Shown: positions 21,452-50,514, numbered from the stretch's first letter. The stretch: DNA of 64,000 nt from Candidatus Daviesbacteria bacterium (GCA_028687915.1 JAQTZF010000001.1:290634-354633); one strand, 5' to 3'. Translations and numbers: made by a program. Notes: a model not told the origin generated them from the letters alone.

Positions 21452-22402
21452 ATGTTAGCTAAGATAATATCTGGAGCAAATGTGGGGATAGAATCTGTTG
21501 CTGTAACGGTGGAAATTGATATTGCTTCACAAGGTTTACCTTCTTTTACTCTGGTAGGATTGGCTGATAGGGCAGTTGAAGAATCAAGAGAAAGAGTGAG
21601 GTCTGCTTTAAAAAATACTGGTGCTGATTTTCCAGCCAAAAGAATTACTGTTAATTTAGCACCAGCTGATTTACCAAAAGTTGGGCCTGCTTTTGATTTA
21701 CCAATAGCTTTAGGATTGCTTATTGCTTCTGGACAGGTGGTAGGGGATTTATCAGACACTATGTTGGTGGGTGAATTATCTCTTGATGGAAGTTTAAGGT
21801 CTACCAATGGGATTTTGGCTTTTACAATTTTAGCTAAAAGTTTGGGTTTAAAAAGAATTTTTGTTCCCCTTGAGAATGCAATTGAAGCAGCAGTGGTGGA
21901 AGGAATAGAAGTATATGGATTTGAAAATTTACTGGAAGTTTTTAATTTCTTAAGTGGAAATTTAGAAAAATCACAACAACCTCTAACAGATTTAGATAGA
22001 AGTGATGATTTATTATATGAATATGATTTTAAAGAAATTAAAGGCCAAAATCAGGCTAAAAGAGCACTTGAAATTGCAGCAGCTGGTGGACATAATGTTA
22101 TATTAAAAGGCCCTCCTGGAGCAGGGAAGACGCTTTTGGCGCGTGCTTTTCCATCTATTTTACCAAAGCTTACTAAAGAAGAATCTTTAGAGATTACCAA
22201 AATTTATTCTGTAACAGGTAATTTATCTAAAGGTTCATCACTAATTACCACACGTCCTTTTCGTTCACCTCACCATACTGCCTCCTATGTTGGAATAATC
22301 GGGGGAGGAAATAATATTAAACCAGGTGAAGTGTCTTTAGCTCATAGAGGTGTATTATTTTTGAATGAAGTGTCTGAGTTCTCGAAGAAATTTTGCTTCT
22401 GA
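21452..22402 (+). CDS. comM: ComM/YifB Mg-chelatase-like AAA+ ATPase, N-terminal fragment, truncated by prophage insertion
   Basis: Lon-like N-terminal domain, Walker A GPPGAGKT and start of Walker B (LAHRGVLFL). The last 12 codons (NEVSEFSKKFCF*) are phage-derived. The remainder of the gene resumes at 59830. Confidence 0.85.
   Translation: MLAKIISGANVGIESVAVTVEIDIASQGLPSFTLVGLADRAVEESRERVRSALKNTGADFPAKRITVNLAPADLPKVGPAFDLPIALGLLIASGQVVGDLSDTMLVGELSLDGSLRSTNGILAFTILAKSLGLKRIFVPLENAIEAAVVEGIEVYGFENLLEVFNFLSGNLEKSQQPLTDLDRSDDLLYEYDFKEIKGQNQAKRALEIAAAGGHNVILKGPPGAGKTLLARAFPSILPKLTKEESLEITKIYSVTGNLSKGSSLITTRPFRSPHHTASYVGIIGGGNNIKPGEVSLAHRGVLFLNEVSEFSKKFCF
22358..22390. repeat. attL: core (22358-22369) plus phage-side integrase core-type arm (22370-22390)
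   Basis: The arm GTGTCTGAGTTCTCGAAGAAA is the near-perfect inverted complement of the arm at 59811-59829. Confidence 0.55.
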
Positions 22403-22554: not shown

Positions 22555-23637
22555 ATGAGCTATCAAAAATTCCTCTCGGAATATACGGATTTTATCAGGT
22601 ATGACCGAGACCTTTCTGAGCATACTGTCGAGGTGCGGGAGCAATGGCTCAACCGCTTCTTTCGTGATCTCGGCGACAAGGAATTCACTTTTGAAAATAT
22701 CCGCGAGCATCTTCGAAACTATAAAAGGGGCAATCTCTCTCCGAATTACATCAATGTCCTGGTGACCTCTCTCAACTCCTTCCTGCGATTTCTGATCGCT
22801 GAAAAACACCAACCCCTGGAAGACTTCACCTCCAACCTCAACCAACTGCGCCCGAAGAAAAAGTTCGTTTTGTATCAGACGCTTTCCCTGGATGAGATCG
22901 AGAAGCTGATCAGCCCGCCACCGCGCAAAAATAACTACAATGTTTTCGGCAAGCCCCACCTATATCCGAAGTATAAAAAGTGCGATGAGATGTGGTCGCT
23001 GCTGCTGGAATTTCTCGCAAAGACTGGCTGCCGTCCTGGAGAAGTGATCGATCTCAATGTTGGCGATCTTAACTTTGGCACTGACGAGTTTATAATCCGC
23101 GAGACAAAGACCGATGAGCAGCGCATTGTGCCGATCCCTCCTGACATGACCACGAAAATGCGTGAGTGGATTAAAAGCAGAGGCGAGATTCCGCCTTCCT
23201 CTCCACTGTTTATCACCATGCACTTTGCCAGGACTCGTCCTAATTCCAGGATCGGCGAGTCGATGATCAATAAAATCATCAGGGAGAGAGCCAGGAGAGC
23301 TGGGCTGCATGTCGACAAGCGCTTCCACGCCCATAGTTTCCGCCATTCTTTTGTGACTGAAATGCTCCGCCAGGATGTCGCGATCTCAAAGGTGCAGCGC
23401 ATCGTCGGTCACCGCAAAGTCGACACGACCATGATTTACACCCACATGGTTGTCGATGACCTCCGCCAGGCGATGCTGAAACACCCTCTAATTCGCAAAT
23501 CACAAGACCCGCATGCTATTATCGAGAGCGTGAAAGAGGAGATTAAATCATTCAAATTGCACGGCGACGAGCGTTTTGATTACACATTAACCGAGCGGAA
23601 CGACGGCTTCTCCTTCGAGCTATCCCTTAAGAAGTAG
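22555..23637 (+). CDS. tyrosine site-specific integrase (phage integrase family)
   Basis: 360 aa. Catalytic R…HxxR…Y residues lie in HAHSFRHSFVTEMLR…HRKVDTTMIYTHM. An N-terminal SAM-like domain is present. Confidence 0.9.
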   Translation: MSYQKFLSEYTDFIRYDRDLSEHTVEVREQWLNRFFRDLGDKEFTFENIREHLRNYKRGNLSPNYINVLVTSLNSFLRFLIAEKHQPLEDFTSNLNQLRPKKKFVLYQTLSLDEIEKLISPPPRKNNYNVFGKPHLYPKYKKCDEMWSLLLEFLAKTGCRPGEVIDLNVGDLNFGTDEFIIRETKTDEQRIVPIPPDMTTKMREWIKSRGEIPPSSPLFITMHFARTRPNSRIGESMINKIIRERARRAGLHVDKRFHAHSFRHSFVTEMLRQDVAISKVQRIVGHRKVDTTMIYTHMVVDDLRQAMLKHPLIRKSQDPHAIIESVKEEIKSFKLHGDERFDYTLTERNDGFSFELSLKK

Positions 23638-23647
23638 TTGTATAATT

Positions 23648-23950
23648 GTGCATATGGCTGACCACAAAAAAAAGGCTCAGGAGATCGTTGCCCGCGCCTA
23701 TAATTTATCCGATGCTTTCGAAGAAACTGTTGAGGAGCTTTTTAACTACCTGGACAGTGTGAAGGAAAAAAGGCGCAAGCAGTTTGGTGAGGACTCCGAA
23801 CCCTATAAAACATCAGTGCAATATGTCGCGATGTGCCGAGAGATTCTGAAAAAAATCCAGACTAACCACGCCGAGGGGTTTGACCTTCTTCTCGAATTCG
23901 TCAAAGACCACATCGAGAAAGAACAGCTCGAAGACTCTCCGTCTACTTAA
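23648..23950 (+). CDS. hypothetical protein (prophage; possible moron or lysogeny gene)
   Basis: 100-aa ORF co-directional with the integrase and GC-rich. No motif recognized. Confidence 0.4.
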   Translation: MHMADHKKKAQEIVARAYNLSDAFEETVEELFNYLDSVKEKRRKQFGEDSEPYKTSVQYVAMCREILKKIQTNHAEGFDLLLEFVKDHIEKEQLEDSPST

Positions 23951-24194
23951 AAAATACCCTGAATACGACATCAATAATGATCGTCACTATGGCAACTGCC
24001 ACGCTGATTTTTACAGTGATGGTATTTACCTGGATTTTCAAATTGTCTACATCGCACTGCAGTGTATGCAGGTGGTTGTTTTTGATCTCACCCAGGTCTT
24101 TGTTGATATAGTTCAAGCCATTGTCGACGCGCTCCTCCAGCTTGGCGACTCTTTCGATGATTTGTGTGTTGGTTGTTCCGTTATCGTTTGCCAT
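23943..24194 (-). CDS. small lysis-associated membrane protein (coiled coil plus C-terminal TM)
   Basis: 83 aa, last gene of the late operon. The C-terminus ISVAVAIVTIIIDVVF is hydrophobic. Confidence 0.4.
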   Translation of the reverse strand: MANDNGTTNTQIIERVAKLEERVDNGLNYINKDLGEIKNNHLHTLQCDVDNLKIQVNTITVKISVAVAIVTIIIDVVFRVFFK

Positions 24195-24206
24195 AGTGAT
24201 TTCGCA

Positions 24207-24479
24207 TTAAAACGGCAATTTATCAACTAGAGCGGTTTTGTCTTCCGATCCGAAGATGTCTCTGAGTAACTTCCCGATGGCGTTCACCCCCGCGACTAAT
24301 CCAGAAAGCAGGAACGGATATGCGAGTAGGGTTTTGAAATTCTCCCAGCTGGCGAATGCTTCCGCTCCTGTATTGATCAGCACTATCGATCCAGTCACAA
24401 AAAAGGCTGAGACAAAAACTCTCAGAAACCTCCAGGCGACTTTCTTCCACTCAGGGTATAGTTGATCTAATGGGTTCAT
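24207..24479 (-). CDS. holin-like protein (2 TM)
   Basis: 90 aa with two TM helices. Lies directly downstream of the endolysin gene with a 4-nt overlap. Confidence 0.45.
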   Translation of the reverse strand: MNPLDQLYPEWKKVAWRFLRVFVSAFFVTGSIVLINTGAEAFASWENFKTLLAYPFLLSGLVAGVNAIGKLLRDIFGSEDKTALVDKLPF

Positions 24480-25588
24480 GCTTTCTTCACCTCCTTTCTA
24501 TTGATTAAATTTTTAATGAAGTTGGTCAATGCTGTGATCACCGCGTTTATGATGCTGGTTTTTACTGGGAGCTGACCCTTCTGACAGGCTTCGAGCTGGC
24601 TTTTGGCAGTTTGAGCCTCTAATAGCGCCCGACCTTTGGCTTTGTTGGCTTCGTCGAGTTCCCCCTCCAGCACCTTCACTCTACCCTCGGCTACCTTGAC
24701 GATTTCAGGCAGGTTTTTGATGTCCTTTTTAAGCGCATCGAGCAGGTCTTTATAATACTTTTCCTTCTCTAGCACTAGCTTTTCGAGTCTGCTAACCTGT
24801 TCGGTTCGGTTGGTGATTTCAGTGTTTGCCACATCGAGGTCTTTTTGCTTCTCTCCCAGCTGGTTTTTCAGGTCAGTTTCCCTCGATTTATACCCTGCAG
24901 CCACACTCTTAACTTTGTCGCTGGGGGTAGTGTTTGGGTCGTCAGTTATCTCAAGAATCTTGAGAGTCTCTGCCCATTTTGTAGCGCTGGCAACTATCTG
25001 CTCGTATTTTGTGCGCCATTCTGGAGTGTTTGGCACAAGGCAACCCTCGGCTGCATCGATTGCTGCAGGCGTTCCTTCATACCAACACCAGGAATAAATC
25101 AATTTCTGAGCTGTCACGCCCCAGCTGGTGATCCTTTTTTCCGCTCCGTCCCAGGGGTCTTGCACTATAAAGTCGTCGCCGTCATAACCGATAGCCAGAA
25201 TCCAGTGTTCGTCGAATGCACTGGTTGAAGGGATCGTGTCGATCTGTAAAAAGACTGGGAAGCCTTTGTCGATTGCTCCTCTGATCTGGTTCATTTGATC
25301 CTGGGTAAGTGCCTGGCTGTTTGACCACTTGCCTGAGTATTTGAGACCCGCAAACAATTTCGGGATCGCTCCCCAGATTAAGAGATTGCCGTCCTGGTAT
25401 CCGCCGTTTTGAGTCATTTTTTCGTTTAAGGTGAGCGGTGTCTCTTTGAATCCGTAATAGCTCACTGACATGGTGGCGCAGTTTAAGAGGCATCCCACTC
25501 CTCCGATTGTGCCTTTTGTCCCCATCGGGCTGTTCTTCCAGCGGGGATCGTTCTGACAATATGTGACTGGTAGTGTTAGTTTTTTCAT
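24476..25588 (-). CDS. endolysin candidate with N-terminal C39-like (papain-fold) peptidase domain and C-terminal coiled coil
   Basis: Cys nucleophile context GGVGCLLNCATM and His context HWILAIGYDGDDFIVQDPW (peptidase_C39_2 / DUF3335-like). About 140 C-terminal residues of heptad-rich coiled coil end in an amphipathic helix. Confidence 0.6.
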   Translation of the reverse strand: MKKLTLPVTYCQNDPRWKNSPMGTKGTIGGVGCLLNCATMSVSYYGFKETPLTLNEKMTQNGGYQDGNLLIWGAIPKLFAGLKYSGKWSNSQALTQDQMNQIRGAIDKGFPVFLQIDTIPSTSAFDEHWILAIGYDGDDFIVQDPWDGAEKRITSWGVTAQKLIYSWCWYEGTPAAIDAAEGCLVPNTPEWRTKYEQIVASATKWAETLKILEITDDPNTTPSDKVKSVAAGYKSRETDLKNQLGEKQKDLDVANTEITNRTEQVSRLEKLVLEKEKYYKDLLDALKKDIKNLPEIVKVAEGRVKVLEGELDEANKAKGRALLEAQTAKSQLEACQKGQLPVKTSIINAVITALTNFIKNLINRKEVKKA

Positions 25589-31915: not shown

Positions 31916-32138
31916 CTCCTTTCGTTGGTTGTTTTACTTCAGTAATAACTCCAGTAACTAAGTTGAAGCTCCACTCCTTATTGCCATCGAGTCCGTATTT
32001 TGAGAACAGACTGACGAGCCAGACATTCTTTTGAGCTTCTAGCGCCTGGCTGATTGCGATGTGCTGCCTGACGAGTTTGTCTTTTTCTTGCAGCTCGATC
32101 AGGTCTTCGTTTTTTAGTTTTAATTTTTTATTGAACAT
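31905..32138 (-). CDS. hypothetical small protein
   Basis: GGAGG RBS sits before ATG at 32136-32138. The track ORF extends to 32213 but that overlaps the upstream gene. Confidence 0.4.
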   Translation of the reverse strand: MFNKKLKLKNEDLIELQEKDKLVRQHIAISQALEAQKNVWLVSLFSKYGLDGNKEWSFNLVTGVITEVKQPTKGGEK

Positions 32139-33447
32139 ATGCCTCCTTAATGACCCCAGGTTTGGTCTGCCACGCCTGGGTGAAATCAGTAATCTTTTTG
32201 TCGACATCTCCACCTGTTTTTCTGATCTGTTTTACCCGATGGTCGAAATATCGCTTTTTGAATGAGTCCTCGGTTTCGTCAGCCTCTTTGACGATGATCT
32301 CTCCCTCTGGTTCGAAGTCCTTGCCGAATGCGCCGTCGCGGATAGTGAAGACAATAAAATCAAAGGGAGCGCTCGACTTGCCTCCAGCGATCTCTTTGAC
32401 TGTCATGCTGTTTTTATCGACCTCTTTGACGAAGATTCCGTTGCAGTCTCCGCGCGGGGTGACATAAGCGGTGACCTTCCTGGCGTCACTGACTGCTGGG
32501 AAGTGGGCGGGAAAAGCGATCTTGCGCTCTCCGTTTGCCAAAGTATCCGATCCACGATGCACCAGCAAGACTTCAGCTGCTTCGATCCCTGTATAAACAA
32601 GCAGATGATTTTTCTTGAGCGGGTGAGGGATCGTAAAATTACACCAGCCAGTTTTGTTGATATTGCCCGCGACATTCAGTGCCTGCATTCCGCACATCAT
32701 GATGTTTAAGCTGGAGAGGTAAGCAATACCTCCGTAAATTCTTTCTGCCGACATCGACCCTGTGGTGATTTTTCCTGCGTTAAGATTGGCGATTTCGGCA
32801 TCAGTGACCGCTAAATCTTGAATCTTGGCTGTCGAAATGGCTGCATTCATGATTTTCGAATTGCCCACAGCCAAAGCGCCGATCTGCGCCCAGGTGACGG
32901 CGAGGTCTTGAATCTTTGCCGTGCTGATTGCTGCCTCCATTATCCTGGAATTACCCACCTGCAGGAGTCCGATTTTCGAATTGGTGATGGTTTCGTTGGC
33001 GATCTCGGCGTTGGTTACTGCCAGGTCTTGGATTTTGGCAGTGGAGATCGCAGCGTTCATGATCTTGCTGTTACCGACCTCTGAGTTGCCGATTTTGGCG
33101 TTGATAATCGCTGCGTCCTGGATGTGTGCCGTGATGATGACCGCTTCTTCTACCTGTGCCGACAGTGTAATGACTGCACCTGTTTTGAAGACCTTTGCTG
33201 CAGTCACGGCGTCGTCTTTTAGCTTTGATGTAGCGACTGCTGCAGCTGCCAACTTTTCCTCAGTGACCGATAAATCCATGAGGTTACCATCACTCACGGC
33301 GTTTTCTTTGAGCTGCGAACTTCCCACTGATTGCGGAGCAAGGGGGAGAGAATCCACGCCGTTGTGGGTGTGCGGTTGCACGACAGGGAAGGGCTGGTCT
33401 GTGACCTCCCTGTTCGTAAATACCTTTTTTATTAAGTCTGTTAGCAT
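32128..33447 (-). CDS. tail fibre-like protein with about 10 tandem 20-aa repeats
   Basis: 439 aa with the iterated unit AISTAKIQDLAVTNAEIANL…NSKIMNA (period about 60 bp in DNA, 32740-33140). Confidence 0.55.
   Translation of the reverse strand: MLTDLIKKVFTNREVTDQPFPVVQPHTHNGVDSLPLAPQSVGSSQLKENAVSDGNLMDLSVTEEKLAAAAVATSKLKDDAVTAAKVFKTGAVITLSAQVEEAVIITAHIQDAAIINAKIGNSEVGNSKIMNAAISTAKIQDLAVTNAEIANETITNSKIGLLQVGNSRIMEAAISTAKIQDLAVTWAQIGALAVGNSKIMNAAISTAKIQDLAVTDAEIANLNAGKITTGSMSAERIYGGIAYLSSLNIMMCGMQALNVAGNINKTGWCNFTIPHPLKKNHLLVYTGIEAAEVLLVHRGSDTLANGERKIAFPAHFPAVSDARKVTAYVTPRGDCNGIFVKEVDKNSMTVKEIAGGKSSAPFDFIVFTIRDGAFGKDFEPEGEIIVKEADETEDSFKKRYFDHRVKQIRKTGGDVDKKITDFTQAWQTKPGVIKEAYVQ
32740..33140. 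repeat. about 60-bp-period tandem coding repeats inside the tail-fibre gene
   Basis: Repeated GTCTTGAATCTTTGCCGT / GTCTTGGATTTTGGCAGT-type units. Confidence 0.5.
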
Positions 33448-34966: not shown

Positions 34967-35647
34967 TTACCTTTGCCATCTCATGCTCGTCGCTTGTCCT
35001 TTGAACACGCTTTGCGGTTCTTCGTCCTCTCTCTCTTTGAGCTGCTGCAGCATGGAATTCGCCTCGTTTATCTCTTTGACTGCCTCGTTTGCTCTGCCAG
35101 GTGTCTTCGAAAGACAGATTGCAAAAGCGAACTTGATAATCGGCTCATCCATTTCTTCTGGTGTGATCGGTTCGTCAGTTTCCTCGACCATTTTCACTGG
35201 TCGTCTCCTATAAAAGAGGTCGAGAATTTTGCCTTCCAGTCCTGCCACATCTTCGTCTTTGGTGATTTCTTTCAGGTTGAGAAAATACTCGTCACCCACA
35301 ATGGAATAAACCCTCTCGTAGGGGTAGGACTTGTCGTTATAAGCATCGATGTCGACTTTGAAATGTTTTTTCTGTTCTTCGGTGACGGGATCGTAAGCGG
35401 TAAGTAGAATCATTCCGCCTGGTTTGAAATCAAAAGGAAGGTAGTAATCTTCTTTCAGTGTGCCGTCGATTTCTAGTTCGATGGCTTGGGTAGCATGGTG
35501 ATTTAAGAACTTCCAGGCTGCATAATTGCAAGCCCTCACCACTGATTTATTGATCCAGCGTTCTTTGTCTTCGGGCTTCCAAAAGCCTGTTATTTTGCTG
35601 GCTGCGATTCTGGCATCTAAATCTTGTGTAAATTCTTGAAATTCCAT
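34967..35647 (-). CDS. hypothetical virion protein
   Basis: 226-aa ORF. Confidence 0.45.
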   Translation of the reverse strand: MEFQEFTQDLDARIAASKITGFWKPEDKERWINKSVVRACNYAAWKFLNHHATQAIELEIDGTLKEDYYLPFDFKPGGMILLTAYDPVTEEQKKHFKVDIDAYNDKSYPYERVYSIVGDEYFLNLKEITKDEDVAGLEGKILDLFYRRRPVKMVEETDEPITPEEMDEPIIKFAFAICLSKTPGRANEAVKEINEANSMLQQLKEREDEEPQSVFKGQATSMRWQR

Positions 35648-35661
35648 ATTTTCACCTCCTC

Positions 35662-38250
35662 TCAGGTTAGACTCCCTGTGAGCCTATAATTAACGATATA
35701 AGGCAACAGATGATTCCCTGGGCAGTCTGTGGCTGCACCAGAAACCTCATGGTGTCCTAATACATTTTCTTTGGGAATATGGCGTTGCTTTCGAAGATCG
35801 TCTAAGAGTTGCTGTAGTGTGGCAAGCTGCGCTGCTGTCGGGTATTCTGTGTCAAATTCTCCGCATACTACCACTCCGAGAGAGCGGTAGTTCATTTTGT
35901 TCGTGTCGGTGTGCGCTCCAACCTTGTTCTCTGGTCTACCTTCTATCAGTATACCATCTCCATCGAGCGCTCCGCCAATGAATTTATGATAGCCAATGTC
36001 TTCCCAGCCGTAGCCTATATGCGCGTTTTTAATGGTTATGAAATGTGTGCCGTCCCTTGCTGTCGCAGTGTGGTGGACGATGATGTATTCGGGATAGTTT
36101 GCTTTGTCATAAAAGGCTTTGTCCTGCTTAGTTGTTGTGGTTCGTCTTATTTTTTGCCAGGCAATCACCAGCTGCGCTGCCCATTTTCCTGCGCCACCTT
36201 TGCTCCAGTCGACAATATACTTGATGTTTCCGCTGTTGCTGTGTTCGCTCTCGATAACCAGTCCCAGCTTTTGGGTTGCGTCTCCGATCCAACCAGCCCG
36301 ATCCACAATTTCCTGGATGATTTCTTTTAATTCTGGCGATTCGTAGACGCTCTGGGCTGTCCAGTGAACACCTGCTAACACGCCTCCCGACGCTGCTCCC
36401 AGCGCCCACTGTTTTTGTGCGGTGGTCTTTGGTCGCGTGGAAGGTCGGGTGCTGCCGTCGGTGGCGAATACTGCAGCATTGTCTTCCGCGAAACCCTTAA
36501 TAATGAAATTGCACATGCTATTGTTTTGGTTGTCACTGGTCACCAAAAGGCGAGCGAAGACGATCTGCGACCCTTTGGGAATCTGCACAGGGCTGAAAAT
36601 AAAGCCCGCATCGTTGGGTGATTCTTCTGGCGAATATGTGCCATCGTCTCCACAGGTGATCCTGTTTTGAGAATAACCGCTCGGATACCAGACATTGTCT
36701 GGGAGCGCTCGATCTCGATAATCTTCCTCGCCATCGCGATCATTGAGCTGCAGGAAGGAGACATTGACCTCTTTGTCGAAGTAGTAAATCTCCAGCTCGG
36801 CTTTGTCTTCTTCACCGCTTGAGCTATCCCAGCAGGTTTTTGAATTGCCTGCTGTGCTGGTGTCATCCTCGACCACGAATGCCATCGCATTGCCTGCCTT
36901 CCAGTCACTTTGTCTCACCAGTTCCTGGACGACCAGGAGAAGGTTCGGGGTTTGCACCCATTCGTTCATTGTCCACTGTTTATAAATCTCCCAGGAGACG
37001 CTGGTCACTGTCTTTGCCCTAGTGCTGGGTTTGGTGGCGCTATTGAATGGCTTGGTGTCAATTTCCTTAATGCCTTTGATTCTCAGTTTGGTGGTGAATG
37101 CAGTCGCGTCAGTGGTCGCTGCCCTTAATCTCAACCTGGCGAACACAATCGTGGCATTCTTCGGGACATCGACATGGCGGAAGCGGAATGCTCCTGCGTA
37201 GGTTTTGCCTCCGTAATTACCCATTGTGATGATGTGGTTGGTGTTGCCGTCTTTATTCCAGACTCCGTCGCTGTCTTCTTTGCCATCATCGAGATTTTGG
37301 TCGATGATCCTTTTAATTTTGAGGACTTGGTTCTTTGATTTTTCAGTAGGAGTGATCGCTGGCTGGATGAAGTAGCGCAATTCTTTTTCGATCAGATGTT
37401 CGGTGGTGATCCCATACTTGAGCTGTTTTTGGATCGGAGGAGGAGGCGTGACTGTGTATCTCAGGCTTTTGGTTATTTTGGCTGATGCTTTGGCGATGCA
37501 GTATTTGAGACTTTTTGTGATCGCTGCAGGCGTTGTCTTGATGTAGTATTTAAGCTGCTTTTGAATCAGAGAAACTCCTGGAAGATCGATGCGGTAGGTC
37601 AGGCTTTTGGTTACTGCTGCAGGAGTTGAATTGACCGCGTATCTCAACTGCTTCGGGAGATTGTAGGAATTGATCTGTGGTTCGAGATAGTAGGAGAGGG
37701 ACTTTTCGATTTTCGTTGTCGATCCGAGTGTCACATCCAGCTCGGCTGCGTTTGCCTCGCCTGAGTTGTAGTCCCAAATCAGTTCGTAGTTGTTGCCTGG
37801 GCTGCCATTGTTTTCAATGACCAGCCCTATTGCACCACTGAAGCCTTCCTGGTTGACAATTTCCTGAATGATAGTTTTGATGTCGGGTGACTCATACCAG
37901 TTGTTTAATGTCCAATCAGCGCCAGGACTCCATGCTACCGATGCGGTTGTTTTGGCGCGGGTAGAAGGTCGAGACGCTGATCCCCAGGTTGCTGGATCAG
38001 GTTCAAGAATGCCTCTGATAACAAGGACGGGGCGCTTGGTGGAATTGACCGCGCACTTTACTCTTATTTTTGCTGCGAGAATGTTAGCTGCTTCGGCGAT
38101 GCCAGTGTCATCGAATATAAGCCCCACATCACAGTCGCCAGTGCCGTCATGACCGATGGTGGACTGATTGCCTGAGTAGCCGTTAGGATACCAATCTGTG
38201 CCATAATCTTCTTCGCCGTCGTCGGTATTGAGGAGGATTTCTTTGATCAC
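35662..38250 (-). CDS. virion-associated peptidoglycan hydrolase: three tandem copies of a novel ~170-aa domain, a 15-aa-repeat linker and a C-terminal N-acetylmuramoyl-L-alanine amidase (PGRP/amidase_2) domain
   Basis: The C-terminal stretch YIIVHHTAT…GYH…CPG carries the amidase_2 zinc ligands. Three internal paralogous domains each begin D(D)GEEDY…NGY…G. Residues about 180-300 hold 8 copies of K(S/Q)L(K/R)Y.I…. . Confidence 0.7.
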   Translation of the reverse strand: MIKEILLNTDDGEEDYGTDWYPNGYSGNQSTIGHDGTGDCDVGLIFDDTGIAEAANILAAKIRVKCAVNSTKRPVLVIRGILEPDPATWGSASRPSTRAKTTASVAWSPGADWTLNNWYESPDIKTIIQEIVNQEGFSGAIGLVIENNGSPGNNYELIWDYNSGEANAAELDVTLGSTTKIEKSLSYYLEPQINSYNLPKQLRYAVNSTPAAVTKSLTYRIDLPGVSLIQKQLKYYIKTTPAAITKSLKYCIAKASAKITKSLRYTVTPPPPIQKQLKYGITTEHLIEKELRYFIQPAITPTEKSKNQVLKIKRIIDQNLDDGKEDSDGVWNKDGNTNHIITMGNYGGKTYAGAFRFRHVDVPKNATIVFARLRLRAATTDATAFTTKLRIKGIKEIDTKPFNSATKPSTRAKTVTSVSWEIYKQWTMNEWVQTPNLLLVVQELVRQSDWKAGNAMAFVVEDDTSTAGNSKTCWDSSSGEEDKAELEIYYFDKEVNVSFLQLNDRDGEEDYRDRALPDNVWYPSGYSQNRITCGDDGTYSPEESPNDAGFIFSPVQIPKGSQIVFARLLVTSDNQNNSMCNFIIKGFAEDNAAVFATDGSTRPSTRPKTTAQKQWALGAASGGVLAGVHWTAQSVYESPELKEIIQEIVDRAGWIGDATQKLGLVIESEHSNSGNIKYIVDWSKGGAGKWAAQLVIAWQKIRRTTTTKQDKAFYDKANYPEYIIVHHTATARDGTHFITIKNAHIGYGWEDIGYHKFIGGALDGDGILIEGRPENKVGAHTDTNKMNYRSLGVVVCGEFDTEYPTAAQLATLQQLLDDLRKQRHIPKENVLGHHEVSGAATDCPGNHLLPYIVNYRLTGSLT
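37350..37720. repeat. about 45-bp-period tandem coding repeats inside the 862-aa gene
   Basis: Recurring GGCTTTTGGTTA… units encode the 15-aa repeats KSLxYxI…. Confidence 0.5.
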
Positions 38251-38657
38251 TGATCACCACCTCCTTCTTCGTCAATTAAAGCAATGCAGTCGTTTGGGTA
38301 AATACAGATCATTTTCTTGAGGCTTCTGCCTCTGTCGTCTTGAATTTTCCAGCCGAAGAAGTAGAGCTTGATCCAGTCTTTTCGCCCTGCGAGTCTCACA
38401 TTGCGGTAAAAATGGATCAGGTCTGCTTTATTTTGGGGAATAAGAAGGCTGATGCCTTCGGGGTTTTTGTCCGAGACCATCTGGAATGATTCCAGTTGTG
38501 TTTGATCGATCTCTCTGAACTGATGAAAAATGCCAGTGTCGTCTTCGAACTGGCGGAGAATAGTGCCGTCTTTATAATGCGCCACCCATCGCCAGCGCTC
38601 GCGCTTGACGATTTCGGTTTTGCCTGTTTCTGGTCTGGTAAAAGTAAATGTTTGCAT
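38247..38657 (-). CDS. hypothetical protein
   Basis: 136-aa ORF. Its start is translationally coupled to the upstream gene's stop. Confidence 0.45.
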   Translation of the reverse strand: MQTFTFTRPETGKTEIVKRERWRWVAHYKDGTILRQFEDDTGIFHQFREIDQTQLESFQMVSDKNPEGISLLIPQNKADLIHFYRNVRLAGRKDWIKLYFFGWKIQDDRGRSLKKMICIYPNDCIALIDEEGGGDQ

Positions 38658-38718
38658 TGTATTGCTAGAAGGCGCATTGTATTGCGCTTTTTTCTTTTAA
38701 TTTCTCGATCCCTGGCTT

Positions 38719-39222
38719 TTATGCCACCTCGTCATACTGATAATTCAGTGTGCTGGTTGAGCCTGCCACATCGCCCGCGTCTGTTTGCATCTGATGCACT
38801 AAGTAGTCGGAATAACCAGCTGCTGTCAATTCGCCTGCGAGAGACCCTCCGATGCCTAAGTTTGCCGTTGCTGGCTCGCTTGATGGCATCACTTGGTCAG
38901 CTACTGTGGAGAGGTCATCTGTCGGGGTCGCGAAGGCTTCAGCGCCACCATATGAAGCTGTCCTGGCGTTGGTCTTGTGTGCTGCAGCGCCTCCTAGTGC
39001 GCCTGTTCTCCACACCTTCAAGTTGTGAATCTTTGACGATCCACCCATTGCCGTGACTTCCAGCTTCTGCCATTTCTCAAAGGAATTCTCCCCTGGGACG
39101 ATAGGGTTGGCGACTGGGTCGAGGTTGGCTTGATCGACACTACCCATATCGGTATCACCGATGTTCGTAGTCTCGGTTGCGCCAGCTCCGTTATATTCGT
39201 TTATTCTTACTGATGCTGCCAT
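38719..39222 (-). CDS. hypothetical virion protein
   Basis: 167-aa ORF. Confidence 0.45.
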   Translation of the reverse strand: MAASVRINEYNGAGATETTNIGDTDMGSVDQANLDPVANPIVPGENSFEKWQKLEVTAMGGSSKIHNLKVWRTGALGGAAAHKTNARTASYGGAEAFATPTDDLSTVADQVMPSSEPATANLGIGGSLAGELTAAGYSDYLVHQMQTDAGDVAGSTSTLNYQYDEVA

Positions 39223-39233
39223 AGTTTTTTTAT

Positions 39234-39512
39234 TTAATGTCGAGGAGGTCTAGCTCCTTTTTTTTCTGGGACATCGAGCTTGATGTTATATCTGGCGTTG
39301 GCTTTCATTCCGATCACACCCATGATCTTTCGAAGTGCCATGATCGTGCTGCCTGCCTTGCCAATCACTAAGCCCGCATCTTTTTCGTCAAGTTTGACTA
39401 AAAGAAGCACTCCCATCTCGTCGACTTTGCGCTCAACTGTCACTTTCTCTGGCTCGTCAACAAAGGCTTTTATGATTTGCTCTAATAATGTTGCGTCTGT
39501 GCTTTCTTGCAT
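39234..39512 (-). CDS. KH-domain (KhpA/YlqC-like) RNA-binding protein
   Basis: 92 aa with a GxxG loop in LVIGKAGSTIMALRKIMG, typical of type-II KH domains. Confidence 0.5.
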   Translation of the reverse strand: MQESTDATLLEQIIKAFVDEPEKVTVERKVDEMGVLLLVKLDEKDAGLVIGKAGSTIMALRKIMGVIGMKANARYNIKLDVPEKKGARPPRH

Positions 39513-39542
39513 TCTGTTTTCACCTCCTTTAGGTTTTTAATT

Positions 39543-40130
39543 TTATAAATCTGGTTCTAGTGTCAATATCAGCTGGGCTGCGTTGGCTGCCCCACTGTTA
39601 AAGTCATAGATATTTTCGTAATTGTTTGCTGGACTGCTGTTGTCCTCGATCACCAGCCCGATTGCCTTATTCGTGAATTCTGTCTGATCGATAATTTCCT
39701 GAATGATTGCCTTAATGTCAGGGCTTTCATACCAGGTGTTTTGCACCCAGTCTGCTCCAGGAATCCAGGCTACTGTCGCTGTCGTTTTCGGTTGCTGTGA
39801 TGGTCGGTGAGTGGCGTCGAAACTCAAGGTGCTGGTTTGCTTAATCCCTTTGATGATCAGGTTGGGTCGCTTGGTTGAATTGACGGCTGATTTCACTCTC
39901 AACTTGGCACTGGTGATCTTCACATTGTTGGGGAGTAGAGGTCTTAAGAACCTGAACCCTGCATCGTTGCTGCCAGTATTGTCATTACCCATCGAAATCT
40001 GGTTACTTCCGTAACCATTCGGGTAGAAAGTTGTGTCGTAGTCTTCCTCGCCGTCATCTGAGTTGACGATGATTCTGAGCTTCGAAAACATCCTTCTTAT
40101 GTTGACTAGCGATGGTTTGAATTTAGACAT
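39543..40130 (-). CDS. stand-alone copy of the ~170-aa repeat domain found three times in the 862-aa protein
   Basis: 195 aa. Aligns by eye along its full length to the 862-aa protein's domain 1 (DDGEEDYDTTFYPNGYG…WYESPDIKAIIQEI…). Confidence 0.55.
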   Translation of the reverse strand: MSKFKPSLVNIRRMFSKLRIIVNSDDGEEDYDTTFYPNGYGSNQISMGNDNTGSNDAGFRFLRPLLPNNVKITSAKLRVKSAVNSTKRPNLIIKGIKQTSTLSFDATHRPSQQPKTTATVAWIPGADWVQNTWYESPDIKAIIQEIIDQTEFTNKAIGLVIEDNSSPANNYENIYDFNSGAANAAQLILTLEPDL

Positions 40131-41209: not shown

Positions 41210-42397
41210 TTAGAGTGCGCCCATGCTCATGATGGCGTGACGACTCGTTTGTTCCATTTGCAATCCAACTTCGCTCAAATACTCATCGACCTGGCTATCT
41301 TCTCCATTCGCCTGACGATTGGTCAGGAGTTTGGTGTCTCGGTTACTGAGGTAGCGGTAGGTCAGACATTCCATATCAAGTCCGATGGCGTAGTTCCCAT
41401 AGGTCGTTCCAGTCAATAGCGGATGCTTGATGATATGCACTGTGCCGTGTGGCGAGTTGTAAGTCACAATCCTAAGCCCGTAGGCTTTGTCTGCTGCCAT
41501 TACTTGGAGTTTCCCTTTCGCCCATCCATTGATCATCGAGACCACTGCTGCCGATGAGAAAAGATACTTCTCTGAATTTCCGTGTGCGAACAAGCTCTCC
41601 AACCATGTCTCAAACTCTGCTTCCGTGTCTACATTCGCGGTAGAGTAGGTAGTTATCCTGCTCAAAATACCTGCTGTGAAGCGTTTCGGATGCGTTCCAC
41701 TGGTTACGATTCCTCTCTTTCCGAATAAGAATGCTCGCTCAATATCGATCATGTGTTCGATACCTTTCTTGCGTCTCTGATAGTCAAAGTCATTTTCCTT
41801 CGTCCACATCTTGCTGTTCTTGGCTGTTTCAGTGATACCGATTGGCGTTCTGAAGATTTGGGCATATCCGTAGACTTCTGCTGCTAGGGTCGACTTGATG
41901 GCTCTCAAGGTCGCACCTTCCTCATTCACATTTCCGATCAACCAAACATCGCCTGCTGCGGATGCAGCTGCGCCTGTTGCCCCTCCTAACTCTGCTCCTA
42001 CCACGACTGTATCGACATCGGTTACCGATTGCACTTCAAATACCCATTTCTGCGCTGCGACCATGATCACATCTCCTGCCTGGAGATACTGAGTTTGTGC
42101 TGTCAAGGTCAAGTTGCCTCCGTCTGGGTCGACATTTCCTGAACCTGTGAGTTGTCTCTTTCCGAATTCGTCTTCAAACCACTTAAATTGAGGATCGATT
42201 GTCTCGACCTTTTTCATGGCTTTGCCCTGTTTCGTCACTGGGTCTTTCCCCGCGTTGGTCAATATCGCTAAAAGCGGATACTGATTGACATCCAAAAGCG
42301 AAATGACATCTGCGACATCGTATTTACGAGTCGGCATTGCCGTCGCTGACGCTGGTGCTGTGTTTGTTCCTCTGATTCCTGTTGCTGATGCTGACAT
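41210..42397 (-). CDS. major capsid protein candidate
   Basis: 395 aa. Lies immediately downstream of an acidic scaffold-like gene. Size and position fit an HK97-fold MCP. No direct sequence match could be verified. Confidence 0.5.
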   Translation of the reverse strand: MSASATGIRGTNTAPASATAMPTRKYDVADVISLLDVNQYPLLAILTNAGKDPVTKQGKAMKKVETIDPQFKWFEDEFGKRQLTGSGNVDPDGGNLTLTAQTQYLQAGDVIMVAAQKWVFEVQSVTDVDTVVVGAELGGATGAAASAAGDVWLIGNVNEEGATLRAIKSTLAAEVYGYAQIFRTPIGITETAKNSKMWTKENDFDYQRRKKGIEHMIDIERAFLFGKRGIVTSGTHPKRFTAGILSRITTYSTANVDTEAEFETWLESLFAHGNSEKYLFSSAAVVSMINGWAKGKLQVMAADKAYGLRIVTYNSPHGTVHIIKHPLLTGTTYGNYAIGLDMECLTYRYLSNRDTKLLTNRQANGEDSQVDEYLSEVGLQMEQTSRHAIMSMGAL

Positions 42398-42444: not shown

Positions 42445-43287
42445 TTAAATTCCTAACCCTCCTAGAGGGCTGTTTTGACCGCTACCTCCGAGAGCTTTCT
42501 GGATGCGTTGTGATTCGGCATCCGAGCCGTCGGGTTTAGTCGGAGCGCCCGCTCCGCTCTCCACTTGAGCCTTTGCTTTTTTGAGGCGGCTCTTTTCCTC
42601 ATCTGATAATTGTTCAGATTCACCTTCACCCTTGCCCTTGTTTTTGCCTAAGAAGGCATCAACTTGAAGGCAAGCGTCTTTGAGAGGTATGACAGTGCCT
42701 TTGGCACTGGCTGCCTCGATAATGGCTAATACCATTTTTCTGTAATCGGGATCGCCGAGATTGTGTTCTTTCTTTGCGTCAGCGATCTCTTTGCGAACTG
42801 CACTTTGCACTTTGCTCTGACTCTCTATGGTCTTTTTGACCCCTTCGTCGATTCGAGAGAGAACCCATTTTGCAAAATCGGATGGTGTCATTTTCTGCAG
42901 TTCTTCGGCTGTTGGGACAGTGAGTTCGTCTTCTTCCTTATCTTTGTTTTTATCCTTATCGTCGCCCTCGTCGTCTTTACCTTTGCCCTTCGCAGCATCG
43001 GCGTTTGCCTTGCGCTGGTCTTTGAGCATTTTGATGACTTCTTCGCGGGATTTACCTTTGAATTCGTCCTCCTCGCCTTCGTCAGAACCCTCACCCTCAC
43101 CCTCGCCTTCACCTTCGCCGTTTTCGTTTTCTTCCTGACCCTCGCCCTCACCACCCTTATTTTCTTCTTCGCCTTCCTTGCCTTTGTTCTCGTCCTCATT
43201 TTCACCACCCTCATCCGCGCCCTCATCAGGCTCGTTTAAGAGTTTCTCTAATTCTGTTTGTTCTTCTTTGTTTTTATCTTCTGGCAT
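42445..43287 (-). CDS. scaffolding protein candidate (highly acidic, Glu/Gly-rich)
   Basis: 280 aa with (GEGE)n low-complexity and poly-acidic tracts. Lies between the portal and capsid genes. Confidence 0.5.
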   Translation of the reverse strand: MPEDKNKEEQTELEKLLNEPDEGADEGGENEDENKGKEGEEENKGGEGEGQEENENGEGEGEGEGEGSDEGEEDEFKGKSREEVIKMLKDQRKANADAAKGKGKDDEGDDKDKNKDKEEDELTVPTAEELQKMTPSDFAKWVLSRIDEGVKKTIESQSKVQSAVRKEIADAKKEHNLGDPDYRKMVLAIIEAASAKGTVIPLKDACLQVDAFLGKNKGKGEGESEQLSDEEKSRLKKAKAQVESGAGAPTKPDGSDAESQRIQKALGGSGQNSPLGGLGI

Positions 43288-47539: not shown

Positions 47540-48532
47540 TTATATCGACTCGCAGGCTACTCCGTCACCAACTCCCACCGAGTCGAGCTTCATGGGATCA
47601 TTGGTTGCAGTGAATCCGCAGCAATCGAAAAATGCCTGGGCTTCAGCATGAGATGAGAAGTCAGAACAATCTCGATCTGGGCTGCTGCAAGAGTATTTAC
47701 ACGATCCGCCTGATGTCGTTTGCTGCTGGGTCTGTTGTGCAGGAGGCGCTGTAGTCGGTTTTGCAGTTGGTTTGGCTGTTGCGACTGGGCAAGCATTGTC
47801 TGCCCAGAGTCCCTTTTTGCCTTGCTCTGCTTCTTTTTGTGCCTGTTTATATGCTGCCTGATATTTATAGGGGGTATTGTAGGTGTATTCGTAAGCGAAG
47901 CCAGTGGCAATCATTACTTTGCCGAAGTCCACTGTGCCATCATCCGTCCACACATACCGCAAAAGTCGATTATATTTATCTCTTTCTCCCTGGATGGGAT
48001 CGGATTCGAGCAGGACTGTTTCGCCAGTGAGATTTTCCTTCGCGACTGCAGAGGCTTTTTCACCGAAGCATTCAACTGGCTTCCTGGGATCGACTGTCTC
48101 TGGTGTGTTGATACCTATAAATCTGATCGTCTCTGCTTTTCCGTTGATTGAGACATCGATGGTGTCGCCGTCGACGACTCTGGTTATCTTTGCACTTTGT
48201 CTGGTATCAGCTGGTGAGGGTGTAGCAGTAGGAGTCGATTCTTTGACTTCAACCGCAGCCGTTTGAGCTTCTGGAGTAGGAGTGACTTGCGCTTGCTCGT
48301 TTGTTTTCGTGTTCGATGGGGAGTTTACTGCAGAGACCCAGGCGCTGCCAAAGAATATGGTAAAAAGCGCGATCACTGCCAGGAGAGAATACTTTAATTT
48401 TGGTTTGCTGACCTTTTTATACACCAACCAACCGAGTCCGAGACCGATTGCAAAGGGGAAGAATGCCAGGGCGAGAATCCCGACGAGAGGAATTGTAATC
48501 AGTTTTCGCTTGCCTTCAAATAGTTTTTTCAT
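47540..48532 (-). CDS. secreted staphylococcal-nuclease (SNase/thermonuclease)-like nuclease with C-terminal Excalibur Ca-binding domain
   Basis: N-terminal TM/signal anchor. SNase core residues lie in …RVVDGDTIDV…IRFIGINTPE…YNRLLRYVW…. The C-terminal DRDCSDF…CC motif matches Excalibur. Confidence 0.7.
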   Translation of the reverse strand: MKKLFEGKRKLITIPLVGILALAFFPFAIGLGLGWLVYKKVSKPKLKYSLLAVIALFTIFFGSAWVSAVNSPSNTKTNEQAQVTPTPEAQTAAVEVKESTPTATPSPADTRQSAKITRVVDGDTIDVSINGKAETIRFIGINTPETVDPRKPVECFGEKASAVAKENLTGETVLLESDPIQGERDKYNRLLRYVWTDDGTVDFGKVMIATGFAYEYTYNTPYKYQAAYKQAQKEAEQGKKGLWADNACPVATAKPTAKPTTAPPAQQTQQQTTSGGSCKYSCSSPDRDCSDFSSHAEAQAFFDCCGFTATNDPMKLDSVGVGDGVACESI

Positions 48533-48640: not shown

Positions 48641-49378
48641 CTAGTTTCCGTTCTTTCGCAGGTCGTAAGTGTCGTTGTCAAAGACGACGATCTGACCGCC
48701 TCTGGTGATGGTTATATTGACCAGTTCAGTCGTTTTGCCGTTTGCGTCTTTGTTTCTCCAGGTGAAGAAGTAATTGACTTTTTCTCCTGGTGTGATGCCG
48801 TCTCCGCCATCCTTTGTGCCTTCGTATTGCCTGGTCATCTTAGAAACATCGACTCCTAAGATTGCCTTGTGATCGGCAATAAACTTCTCGGCGACAGTGG
48901 CTGCTTCCTCCGCATTGTAGCGAGGAGTGTAGTCATAGACAGGTCTGGTATCCGTTGCACTTTCTCTCTGTCCCTGTCCCAATTCGACAATGTTATTGCC
49001 AGCTGGATCAACAATAAATGACCAGCCTTCAGAGGTGTAATACTCAAAAGAACCTCTGCCACAGTCAAAATTGACAGTAAATTCTTTGCTGACTGTAGGA
49101 TACATTGCGTGTAAGAACTCTCGAACATTGGCAACCGCCTGCTGGCGATCTGCTTCAGGTCGAGCAGCCAGATTGCAGTAGTCTGTCTTTGCTGTCTTAT
49201 ATTCGACAGACTCTTTGTCCTTGATACTATCGAGACGAGCTTGTGCTGCAGCAACCTGCTCCGCTTTGGTGTCCTCAACTGCTGCCACAGTTTCGCTTGC
49301 TTTATCCTTTTGGGTAAAAGCAAACACTCCTAGAGCGATCACTGCTATTGCTCCGATTAAGATTAGCTTTCCTTTCAT
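48641..49378 (-). CDS. secreted hypothetical protein (signal peptide)
   Basis: 245 aa with an N-terminal signal-like hydrophobic segment. Confidence 0.45.
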   Translation of the reverse strand: MKGKLILIGAIAVIALGVFAFTQKDKASETVAAVEDTKAEQVAAAQARLDSIKDKESVEYKTAKTDYCNLAARPEADRQQAVANVREFLHAMYPTVSKEFTVNFDCGRGSFEYYTSEGWSFIVDPAGNNIVELGQGQRESATDTRPVYDYTPRYNAEEAATVAEKFIADHKAILGVDVSKMTRQYEGTKDGGDGITPGEKVNYFFTWRNKDANGKTTELVNITITRGGQIVVFDNDTYDLRKNGN

Positions 49379-50514
49379 TCGTTCTCACCTCCTTTCAATA
49401 GATAATTTTTAATGTTTTGTAGGTGTTCTTCGTAAGTGACTGCACAGTGAATCTGTCTGTTTGAATCGTGCAGGTAGTATAAGCAGTCAGTTTCCTCTGA
49501 GTTTAAGACGGCATCGATGGCATCGATTCCTGGGTTTGAGATCGGGAAGGGTGGAAGTCCTGCGTATTTATAGGTGTTATATTTTGAATCGATCTCTTTG
49601 TCTGCCACAGTGATCGGCTTCCAGAAGCCTGTGGTCAGCTCGTCGCGATCATCCCTGGCATATTGCACAGTGGCATCAACTTCGAGCTTCATATTCTTGA
49701 GCAATCGATTCCAAAGGATTCCCGCGATCAGTGGCATGTCGCTTTTGCCTCCTGCTTCCCGCTGCACTATCGAGGCAATTTTGAGAGCCGTTGTCCATTT
49801 GACATCCTGCTTCAGGAACTTGGTCATGTAGGGAGCAAACTGCTCGTCAAAGCGCCTGCGGAGACGATTGGCTGCGTCCAGTCCGTTCTCGTCAGTAGGT
49901 ATAAGGTATGTATCAGGGAAGTAGACACCCTCCAGGTGATCGTAGTCCATTGCGGTGTAGGTATAAGTCCATTCGTGCAGCGCCTTCTCATCCCATCCGA
50001 GAGCCTTTGCCAGGCGTTCTCCGATTTCTTCTTTCCTCAATCCTTCAGGAATAGTGACCCAGACGAGAGCTGGTTTATCCGCGACTGTTTTTGCGAGAGT
50101 CCAGGCATCCATGCTCTTGCTGATTCGGTAACCTCCTGCATCGATCTTGCTGTCAGTTTTGGTGAGGGCATAGTCGAAAGCCCAGGCGTTCTTTATAAAT
50201 CCCTGGCTGAGTAGTTTATCCTTGATGTCTTTCTGCTCAGCGACTGTGCTGACGACGAAGACTTCTGACTCTGCTTGTTTTTGTGGTGCGCTAAAAAGAG
50301 AATTGAAGTAGTAGACAGCCCCGCCTCCGATAATAAGCAGCGCTGCAATAACGATGAGGAGAATTTTTGCGAGAGAACTTTTTCTCACACGATCAAGAGG
50401 ATTGCCGAATTTCTTCTCCAGCTGATCTTTATATCTCAGCTCGTCCTCACTGAGAGGGAGGACTTTTGATGGGCTTACGCTAGTTTTTGTCATTTTACTT
50501 TTTGATAATTCCAT
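49375..50514 (-). CDS. MltG/YceG-like endolytic murein transglycosylase homologue
   Basis: N-terminal TM anchor. Family motifs include …YLHDSNRQIHCAVTYEEH…, FPDTYLIP and …GLPPFPISNPG…. Confidence 0.65.
   Translation of the reverse strand: MELSKSKMTKTSVSPSKVLPLSEDELRYKDQLEKKFGNPLDRVRKSSLAKILLIVIAALLIIGGGAVYYFNSLFSAPQKQAESEVFVVSTVAEQKDIKDKLLSQGFIKNAWAFDYALTKTDSKIDAGGYRISKSMDAWTLAKTVADKPALVWVTIPEGLRKEEIGERLAKALGWDEKALHEWTYTYTAMDYDHLEGVYFPDTYLIPTDENGLDAANRLRRRFDEQFAPYMTKFLKQDVKWTTALKIASIVQREAGGKSDMPLIAGILWNRLLKNMKLEVDATVQYARDDRDELTTGFWKPITVADKEIDSKYNTYKYAGLPPFPISNPGIDAIDAVLNSEETDCLYYLHDSNRQIHCAVTYEEHLQNIKNYLLKGGENE

Follow-up and report, generated by a model that had tools for sequence, protein, structure and literature searches.

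A beta-sandwich domain of about 175 residues occurs four times among the late genes of a prophage of Candidatus Daviesbacteria, and it belongs to a very large sister branch of the DNRLRE/CBM96 superfamily for which no curated model exists; it falls outside Pfam CBM96, yet its fold is not new. The prophage lies in a stretch of 64,000 nucleotides (GCA_028687915.1, JAQTZF010000001.1:290634-354633), here called the window. Three copies of the domain precede a peptidoglycan amidase in a protein of 862 residues, and the fourth is encoded separately as a protein of 195 residues, here called S. We suggest that these domains are glycan-binding modules which target an amidase displayed on the virion of an SU10-like prophage of the candidate phyla radiation (CPR), and that the first copy, together with a stalk of YTV-type repeats, was gained by fusion with another module; we give this account as a whole about an even chance of being correct.

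The 862-residue protein is encoded by an open reading frame (ORF) with a GTG start at 35662..38250 (-; this sign marks the minus strand throughout). From the N-terminus it comprises domain copy D1 (residues 3-178; 37717..38244, -), which belongs to the same lineage as S, eight YTV-type repeats of the form K-S/Q-L-K/R-Y-x-I/V (residues 183-303; 37342..37704, -), domain copies D2 (residues 304-492; 36775..37341, -) and D3 (residues 499-701, with two insertions; 36148..36756, -), and an Amidase_2 domain (residues 718-846; 35713..36099, -). The copies were mapped with hidden Markov models (HMMs) and the repeats by motif count. The original prediction, made from the DNA sequence alone, had placed three tandem paralogous domains before the amidase, and BLASTP bears this out with three separate matches of S to the larger protein: to residues 5-175 (57.6% identity, E 8e-64), 304-486 (31.4%, E 2e-30) and 502-696 (38.5%, E 6e-34). 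S (39543..40130, -), found as an ORF and confirmed by BLASTP and HMM mapping, is indeed the fourth copy three genes upstream that had been proposed, with the domain in residues ~20-193 (39552..40073) and intervening genes for proteins of 92, 167 and 136 residues. Of the motifs described for the copies, WYESPDIK is not literally present in D2, which carries WVQTPNLLLVVQELV at that place. In a full-length AlphaFold model of the 862-residue protein the three domains and the amidase are all predicted with confidence (pLDDT 82-95 for D1). Both sequences are found unchanged in public data (P0048 for the long protein, P0001 for S), where they are labelled as coming from a 1.10-Mb contig of a Candidatus Daviesbacteria metagenome-assembled genome, and P0048 has 10 further full-length homologues of 862-866 residues at 69-86% identity.

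The C-terminal PGRP/Amidase_2 domain was also correctly recognised at the outset: it matches Pfam PF01510 with an E-value of 3.5e-19 (69.9 bits against a cut-off of 26), which makes it a predicted N-acetylmuramoyl-L-alanine amidase of the PGRP/T7-lysozyme type, and this part of the protein matches PHROG amidase/endolysin families as well (E 4e-25). Residues H726, Y754, H833 and C843 are invariant across 38 homologues; by analogy with the PGRP/T7-lysozyme family we take H726, H833 and C843 to be the His/His/Cys zinc ligands and Y754 to be the catalytic Tyr, which fits an intact zinc-binding and catalytic site in the predicted enzyme. Amidase_2 is the sole Pfam hit at E<=0.1, with no match to the classical wall-binding families of lysins (SH3b, CW_7, LysM, PG_binding_1); PHROGs cover the amidase part only, leaving the domain copies without any PHROG, and a hydropathy scan found neither a signal peptide nor a transmembrane segment in the protein.

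The affiliation of the domain is seen most directly with the NCBIfam model NF033679 (DNRLRE domain), which matches S with 31.8 bits (E 1.3e-7) and D1 in the 862-residue protein with 28.5 bits (E 1.4e-6), both below the model cut-off of 34 bits. The matches are collinear and extend over the whole model, with residues 40-190 of S corresponding to model positions 14-164 of 164 and residues 21-174 of D1 to positions 9-164. In an alignment of 50 diverse copies of the domain (A1), 18 members match NF033679 at E<0.01, while two match Pfam CBM96 (PF24517, cut-off 26 bits), both weakly (best E 0.0014). One core family member, P0312, clears the NF033679 cut-off with 36.7 bits, and another protein, P0251, reaches 25.6 bits against CBM96 on residues that are also matched by the A1 profile.

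Modelling of S with AlphaFold2 using A1 gave a beta-sandwich with one short helix (pLDDT 92, pTM 0.88). The first-ranked Foldseek match in the PDB is 8WAB, a chondroitin-sulfate-binding module (TM-scores 0.60/0.65, E 1.6e-7), and the sixth is 7VBO, an alginate-binding module (0.52/0.55, E 7e-6), all of these TM-scores being moderate; BMP9/TGF-beta prodomains are also among the top matches, those of BMP9 ranking between the two modules. The suggestion that structure prediction might uncover a carbohydrate-binding beta-sandwich is thus supported, since the closest solved relatives of this real beta-sandwich of ~175 residues are carbohydrate-binding modules. 7VBO founded CBM96 and shares ~30% identity with proteins that have a DNRLRE domain (PMC9971899), 8WAB is itself listed among such proteins (PMC12611786), and the pattern of hits to 7VBO and BMP9 prodomains has been reported for another DNRLRE domain (PMC12278694), an equal pattern having been published for CBM96 (PMC9971899). 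A library of viral structures yielded, as its closest hits, tail, fibre and structural proteins of phages, among them a Brevibacillus phage protein annotated as CBM96. Matches of the domain alignment to multi-copy 'Pizza' designer proteins and antibody light chains in a sequence-profile search of the PDB were rejected as spurious and indicate no relationship.

The family is large. A profile search of 1.84 billion cluster representatives (50% identity) returned 21,730 proteins at E<=0.001, of which 7,964 also pass E<=1e-30; the top scorers carry 3-8 copies of the domain in proteins of 600-5,900 residues. Most are giant surface proteins, largely not of phages, with partner domains that include Ig, PKD, cadherin-like, type IX secretion system (T9SS) sorting, PilY1/vWA, LamG and metallophosphoesterase domains, and the core members are almost entirely missed by the curated models of Pfam and NCBIfam. 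Among cultivated phages there is no close comparator: tblastn of the 862-residue protein against 50,697 GenBank phage records gave one weak match to the domain, in a Methanosarcinales virus. The original prediction of an uncharacterized domain family therefore stands in so far as no curated model reaches its threshold on the window copies, and fails in so far as NF033679 together with 8WAB and 7VBO places them in a known superfamily; the proviso that the domain might map to a well-known family has come true by half.

Likeness to the CBM96/DNRLRE group, whose founder is module TM6-N4 (PDB 7VBO) of the alginate lyase Dp0100, extends from the length (~165-180 residues) and the beta-sandwich with a short helix to the full-length collinear match, the top structural matches, the shared secondary hits to BMP9/TGF-beta prodomains, and the habit of being joined, often as tandem copies, to enzymes whose substrates are polymers of the cell surface. 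The window family has signatures of its own, however (DDxEE near the N-terminus, RF...IP, S-R-x-x-T-T-A-x-V-x-W and SPDIKxIIQEIVxRxGWxxGN), and it is joined here to a peptidoglycan amidase rather than a polysaccharide lyase. Small stand-alone proteins with a genuine CBM96/DNRLRE domain exist as well (177-257 residues; P0318), one of them in a CPR (Paceibacterota) genome. The protein P0116 carries YTV repeats beside a genuine CBM96 domain, so this repeat is found with either branch of the superfamily.

The repeats between D1 and D2 are defined by the motif K-x-L-x-Y, which occurs eight times in the 862-residue protein, at residues 183, 200, 215, 231, 246, 261, 275 and 289, and nowhere else in it; none of 100,000 shuffles of the repeat region reached eight motifs, the maximum being three. 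The number in the original prediction (eight tandem 15-residue repeats) was thus right, while the spacing is 14-17 residues rather than a strict 15 and the span is 37342..37704. The 45-bp period claimed for the DNA was not recovered: Tandem Repeats Finder detects no array, because the repeats have diverged too far at the nucleotide level, and the periodicity is visible in the protein only. Among relatives, 359 fifteen-residue units give the consensus K-S-L-K-Y-T-V-x-T-T-P-S-A-I-T, with K1, L3 and Y5 almost invariant and periods of 14 and 15 dominating, and homologous arrays in other phage proteins comprise 4-44 copies. Three relatives (P0094, P0112 and P0119) match the Pfam YTV model (PF07639); the window repeats align with their arrays at 38-46% identity (E 1e-18 to 1e-19), and the eight window repeats by themselves have no PF07639 match at E<=0.1. 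The consensus, the period of 14-15 and the matches of the relatives all point to the YTV family, which is without known structure (PMC8078820); what sets the repeats of the window and related loci apart is their place in proteins of phages and their company of two small conserved genes. As their sequence is strongly conserved and yet does not fold as a monomer, the repeats may form an oligomeric, fibre-like element. A triple-beta-spiral of the kind in adenovirus fibres was considered as a possible structure for the 15-residue repeats and is only a lead. Searches of PDB sequences with the repeat region and with the products of the two small genes gave nothing meaningful.

These two genes, which encode p167 (167 residues; 38719..39222, -) and p136 (136 residues; 38247..38657, -), were recognised by their co-occurrence with YTV-repeat proteins, and the stop of p136 overlaps the start of the amidase gene. 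Homologues of the 862-residue protein fall into three classes, namely the commonest, D2-D3-amidase, with 542-561 residues, a second of the form repeats-D2-D3-amidase, with 686-688 residues, and the full D1-repeats-D2-D3-amidase arrangement, with 862-866 residues. D2 and D3 are orthologous to the first and second domains of the 542-561-residue amidases (53-57% and 54-59% identity, respectively), while D1 is 57-64% identical to the S lineage and 32-43% identical to D2 and D3; D1 of the window by itself has 57% identity to the 195-residue protein and 34-37% to D2 and D3. At the nucleotide level D1 and S are 62% identical, which indicates that their duplication is old. Genes for p167 and p136 are present in all four loci where the amidase protein starts in repeats (the window, L005, L006 and L007) and in none of the seven loci of the short class. 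Copies of p167 with 59-92% identity lie upstream of YTV-repeat proteins in L003-L007, L012 and L013, and the trio p167, p136 and YTV-repeat protein, in this order, also occurs in the otherwise unrelated phages L003, L004, L012 and L013. In L003 the repeat protein has 876 residues, with one DNRLRE-like domain and 25 repeats, and is 36% identical to residues 10-295 of the 862-residue protein; in L004 it has 1394 residues with 44 repeats, and is encoded between an HK97-type capsid gene and genes for head-completion and tube proteins. One exception, L010, carries the p167 and p136 genes but no repeat protein that could be recognised. As read from the sequences, the most economical history begins with the insertion of a mobile module of three genes ahead of the gene for an ancestral D2-D3-amidase, to which the last gene of the module was then fused in frame.

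The genes lie in what appears to be a ~37.5-kb prophage, at roughly 22.4-59.9 kb of the window, inserted in comM. The insertion is evident from a ComM-like gene that is split at both boundaries: its 5' part (ComM/Mg-chelatase-like; 21452..22402, plus strand) has a Pfam match that ends at position 121 of 207, and an ORF at 59989..60444 (plus strand; …ISGPLLDRIDIH…LSRTIADL…) resembles, and presumably is, the missing ComM C-terminus. A search for direct repeats (att sites) at the prophage ends gave 12-bp matches only, and the boundaries were taken from the split gene. GC content is 44-50% (mostly 46-50%) over ~22.4-59.9 kb and 31-37% in the flanks, where the genes are cellular (pyruvate:ferredoxin oxidoreductase, an acetyl-CoA-synthetase-like protein, RNase Y and an HtrA-like protease); the high-GC block encodes a tyrosine integrase (22555..23637, beside the left boundary), the terminase large subunit, an SU10-like portal (a weak match), a 1723-residue LPD38 protein and a C39-like peptidase. 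Close homologues come from genomes of Woesebacteria and Nomurabacteria, including a closed 818-kb Woesebacteria chromosome, and the elements are prophages of CPR/Patescibacteria. The gap in GC content is unusually large for an integrated phage, and related prophages are found in several CPR genomes.

The head-accessory block begins with the major capsid gene of SU10 type (41210..42397, -; PF17236, E 4.8e-41), and the downstream neighbour of the amidase gene encodes a putative tail adaptor of 226 residues (34967..35647, -), 51% identical to the product of an L001 gene with PF24175 (SU10_adaptor). In relatives the order is capsid, p198 (with a SAP domain), p96, S, a KH-domain protein, amidase, adaptor, tail genes and LPD38; it is fixed in all relatives examined, with the one exception of L021, which lacks the KH gene, and in ~11 related loci the S and amidase genes always stand between the SU10-type capsid and adaptor genes. 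Neither Pfam nor PHROGs returned anything for p167, p136, the 96-residue protein or the 226-residue protein. A second slot for a cell-wall hydrolase, which is a candidate lysis cassette, lies at 23943..25588 (-) and contains genes for the C39-like peptidase (24476..25588, -; Peptidase_C39_2, E 6.6e-13) and, by hydropathy scan, a 90-residue protein with two transmembrane segments (24207..24479, -) and an 83-residue protein with one (23943..24194, -). The hydrolase in this slot, which follows the giant LPD38 gene, is C39-like here and M23-like in relatives (L023-L026), with the same coiled-coil C-terminal half. This exchange beside small membrane proteins looks like swapping of the catalytic domain.

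Based on the above, we propose that an SU10-like short-tailed phage resident in comM of Candidatus Daviesbacteria uses the module four times. Two ancestral copies, D2 and D3, would serve a predicted zinc-dependent MurNAc-L-Ala amidase that they directly precede, and the S-derived D1 with its eight-repeat YTV stalk probably arrived when the three-gene module of p167, p136 and a domain-YTV protein inserted upstream and the last of these genes was fused in frame to the amidase gene. The ligand of the modules would be some glycan of the host envelope, be it peptidoglycan, a secondary wall polymer or an S-layer glycan; we infer this targeting role from the polysaccharide binding of the only relatives that have been characterised and from the usual place of the family on surface proteins. 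The conserved, probably oligomeric stalk would display the amidase on the virion, and the modules would hold it against the wall, where it may cut peptide stems locally during infection; S would be a separate virion-borne adhesin. Display on the virion is suggested by the invariant position of the amidase gene between capsid and adaptor, by the stalk, which is common to large structural-module proteins (YTV arrays occur in the largest proteins of the structural modules of unrelated phages), by the N-terminal DUF2793 domain fused to some S orthologues in relatives, and by the existence of a separate hydrolase slot beside small membrane proteins. DUF2793 is a domain of tail-fibre and structural proteins (PMC5026251). 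By its position the amidase gene belongs to the structural module, as do the genes for virion-associated peptidoglycan hydrolases. Display may be on the head or on the tail; the gene lies in the block where head-accessory genes occur, and the L004 repeat protein precedes a head-completion gene. The proposal of a cell-wall-binding module of a virion-associated lysin thus gains a carbohydrate-binding type of fold, attached to a peptidoglycan amidase within a phage structural block, and loses the notion of an unconnected new family.

Several observations speak against this account. The homology of the domain rests on one near-threshold model and on fold similarity at moderate TM-scores; Pfam CBM96 (PF24517) has no match at E<=0.1 on any window copy, the domain stays below both curated thresholds, the A1 profile misses the genuine CBM96 domain of P0116, and both 7VBO and 8WAB are missing from the results when PDB sequences are searched with a profile of the domain. 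Comparison of A1 with a shallow alignment of only eight genuine CBM96 sequences (A3) by hhalign gave a probability of 5.2% (E 0.0075), collinear over 149 columns, and on account of this weak result we dropped the filing of the domain under CBM96. Residues 177-306 have pLDDT ~25-35 in the full-length AlphaFold monomer, in which the repeats of the putative stalk thus take no confident shape. The combination of wall-binding modules with a catalytic domain is also the classical layout of endolysins for hosts with a single membrane, and the coiled-coil C39/M23 protein beside LPD38 could be an ejected virion hydrolase by analogy with SU10 gp20, in which case the amidase would be the endolysin. SU10 gp20, an ejection protein, degrades peptidoglycan (PMC9509320).

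It is possible, though we find it doubtful, that the 862-residue protein is such a soluble endolysin, whose DNRLRE-like N-terminal modules keep the enzyme on the wall at lysis, with the C39/M23 protein as the virion-borne or ejected hydrolase. Its Amidase_2 domain matches PHROG 'endolysin/amidase' families, it has the layout of binding modules plus catalytic domain that is typical of endolysins, it lacks a signal peptide and transmembrane segment, and the peptidase gene directly after the giant LPD38 gene holds the position of the SU10 ejection proteins. Modular phage endolysins likewise combine Amidase_2 with repeated non-catalytic modules that are probably wall-binding; in the 862-residue protein, however, these modules are N-terminal, outside the classical lysin types, and are accompanied by a repeat stalk known elsewhere from large proteins of structural modules, and the length of the protein is unusual for an endolysin. 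Its gene is fixed between capsid and adaptor rather than beside a holin, ~10 kb from the only small membrane proteins, and its neighbours, p136 and the adaptor, have no transmembrane segment, which places it outside any lysis cassette; it is the peptidase slot that swaps catalytic domains beside holin-like genes, as is typical of such cassettes. A virion-displayed amidase would resemble the wall-degrading enzymes encoded among structural genes of podophages in that both are presumed to open the wall during infection, whereas there is no sequence relationship. Such podophage enzymes are not generally known to carry dedicated wall-binding modules.

We consider it improbable that the domains bind no glycan at all and are instead structural or protein-protein modules that dock the amidase and S to capsid or tail, or mere spacers. 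The same fold does serve non-carbohydrate roles in TGF-beta/BMP prodomains, no correspondence could be established between the family and the ligand-binding residues of CBM96, and the head-accessory block that holds the genes is where phages encode decoration proteins; the YTV protein of L004 lies between capsid and head-completion genes, and the SU10 gene after the capsid gene, at the equivalent position, encodes gp10, a putative minor capsid protein (PMC9509320). Yet the nearest solved relatives, and the only characterised members of the superfamily, bind polysaccharides, tandem copies are typical of the family in proteins that are secreted or on the surface, where T9SS, PilY1, Ig, PKD and LamG domains are its partners, and attachment to a wall-degrading enzyme fits a targeting role. 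An amidase of the host for remodelling its own wall, or an artefact of assembly or annotation, might be considered in view of the metagenome-assembled source and the GC content, which is put at 47-49% for the prophage and 32-35% for its flanks in this comparison; this we regard as very improbable, as the gene has the complete late operon of a phage around it (integrase, terminase, portal, capsid and tail genes), the architecture is kept in many independent contigs, among them the closed Woesebacteria chromosome, the ORF is intact and the catalytic residues are invariant.

Escherichia phage SU10 (Kuravirus) shares with the window phage the type of capsid protein, the portal (by the weak match) and the adaptor, a giant LPD38 protein at the position of the ejection proteins, and accessory genes between capsid and adaptor. 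The window phage differs from SU10 in being temperate, with an integrase and inserted in comM, and in having a CPR bacterium as host, and SU10 has no amidase or DNRLRE-like genes in its capsid-adaptor block.

Some other features of the prophage and its relatives deserve mention. A KhpA-like protein with a KH domain of RNA-binding type (39234..39512, -; PF13083, E 9e-17) is encoded in the head-accessory block, where its gene is kept in nearly all relatives, which is a surprising location for it. Genes for a homologue of the endolytic transglycosylase YceG/MltG (E 3e-67) and a staphylococcal-nuclease-like protein (49375..50514, -, and 47540..48532, -) lie between those for portal and terminase. 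A tail-fibre protein of 439 residues (32128..33447, -) contains many short repeats (…NSKIMNAAISTAKIQDLAVT…) and matches several PHROG tail-fibre families, and the putative scaffold protein upstream of the capsid gene (42445..43287, -) has a very acidic N-terminal half of low complexity, with runs of E, G, D, K and N. In the close relatives L001 and L002, a reverse transcriptase and a bAvd-like gene (3590..4999), the signature of a diversity-generating retroelement, lie upstream of the head genes; a crude scan for the YxDD motif in ORFs of at least 250 residues found no reverse transcriptase in the window.

On a wider view, we tentatively speculate, while regarding the combination as rather unlikely to hold in all its parts, that p167, p136 and the domain-YTV protein form a portable 'fibre kit' exchanged among phages whose capsids and tails are unrelated; that YTV is a previously undescribed oligomeric fibre fold; that the kit was welded onto a lysin in CPR phages to give an enzyme-tipped, glycan-binding virion fibre; and that the family of ~22,000 clusters is an unrecognised major class of glycan-binding domains with a specificity unlike that of CBM96. 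What is new here is a very large uncatalogued branch of a known superfamily, a family of 21,730 clusters (50% identity) essentially missed by the present Pfam and NCBIfam models, which occurs in the unusual fused lysin of a CPR prophage; a link is also drawn from the obscure YTV repeat to structural proteins of phages, with two conserved genes as its partners. Hardly any experimental work exists on the phages of CPR/Patescibacteria, and how they recognise and breach the envelope of their hosts is poorly understood. With a fluorescent tag, the 195-residue module and the D2-D3 pair might become specific probes for uncultivated CPR cells, or handles with which to capture them; the amidase is a candidate CPR-directed lysin.

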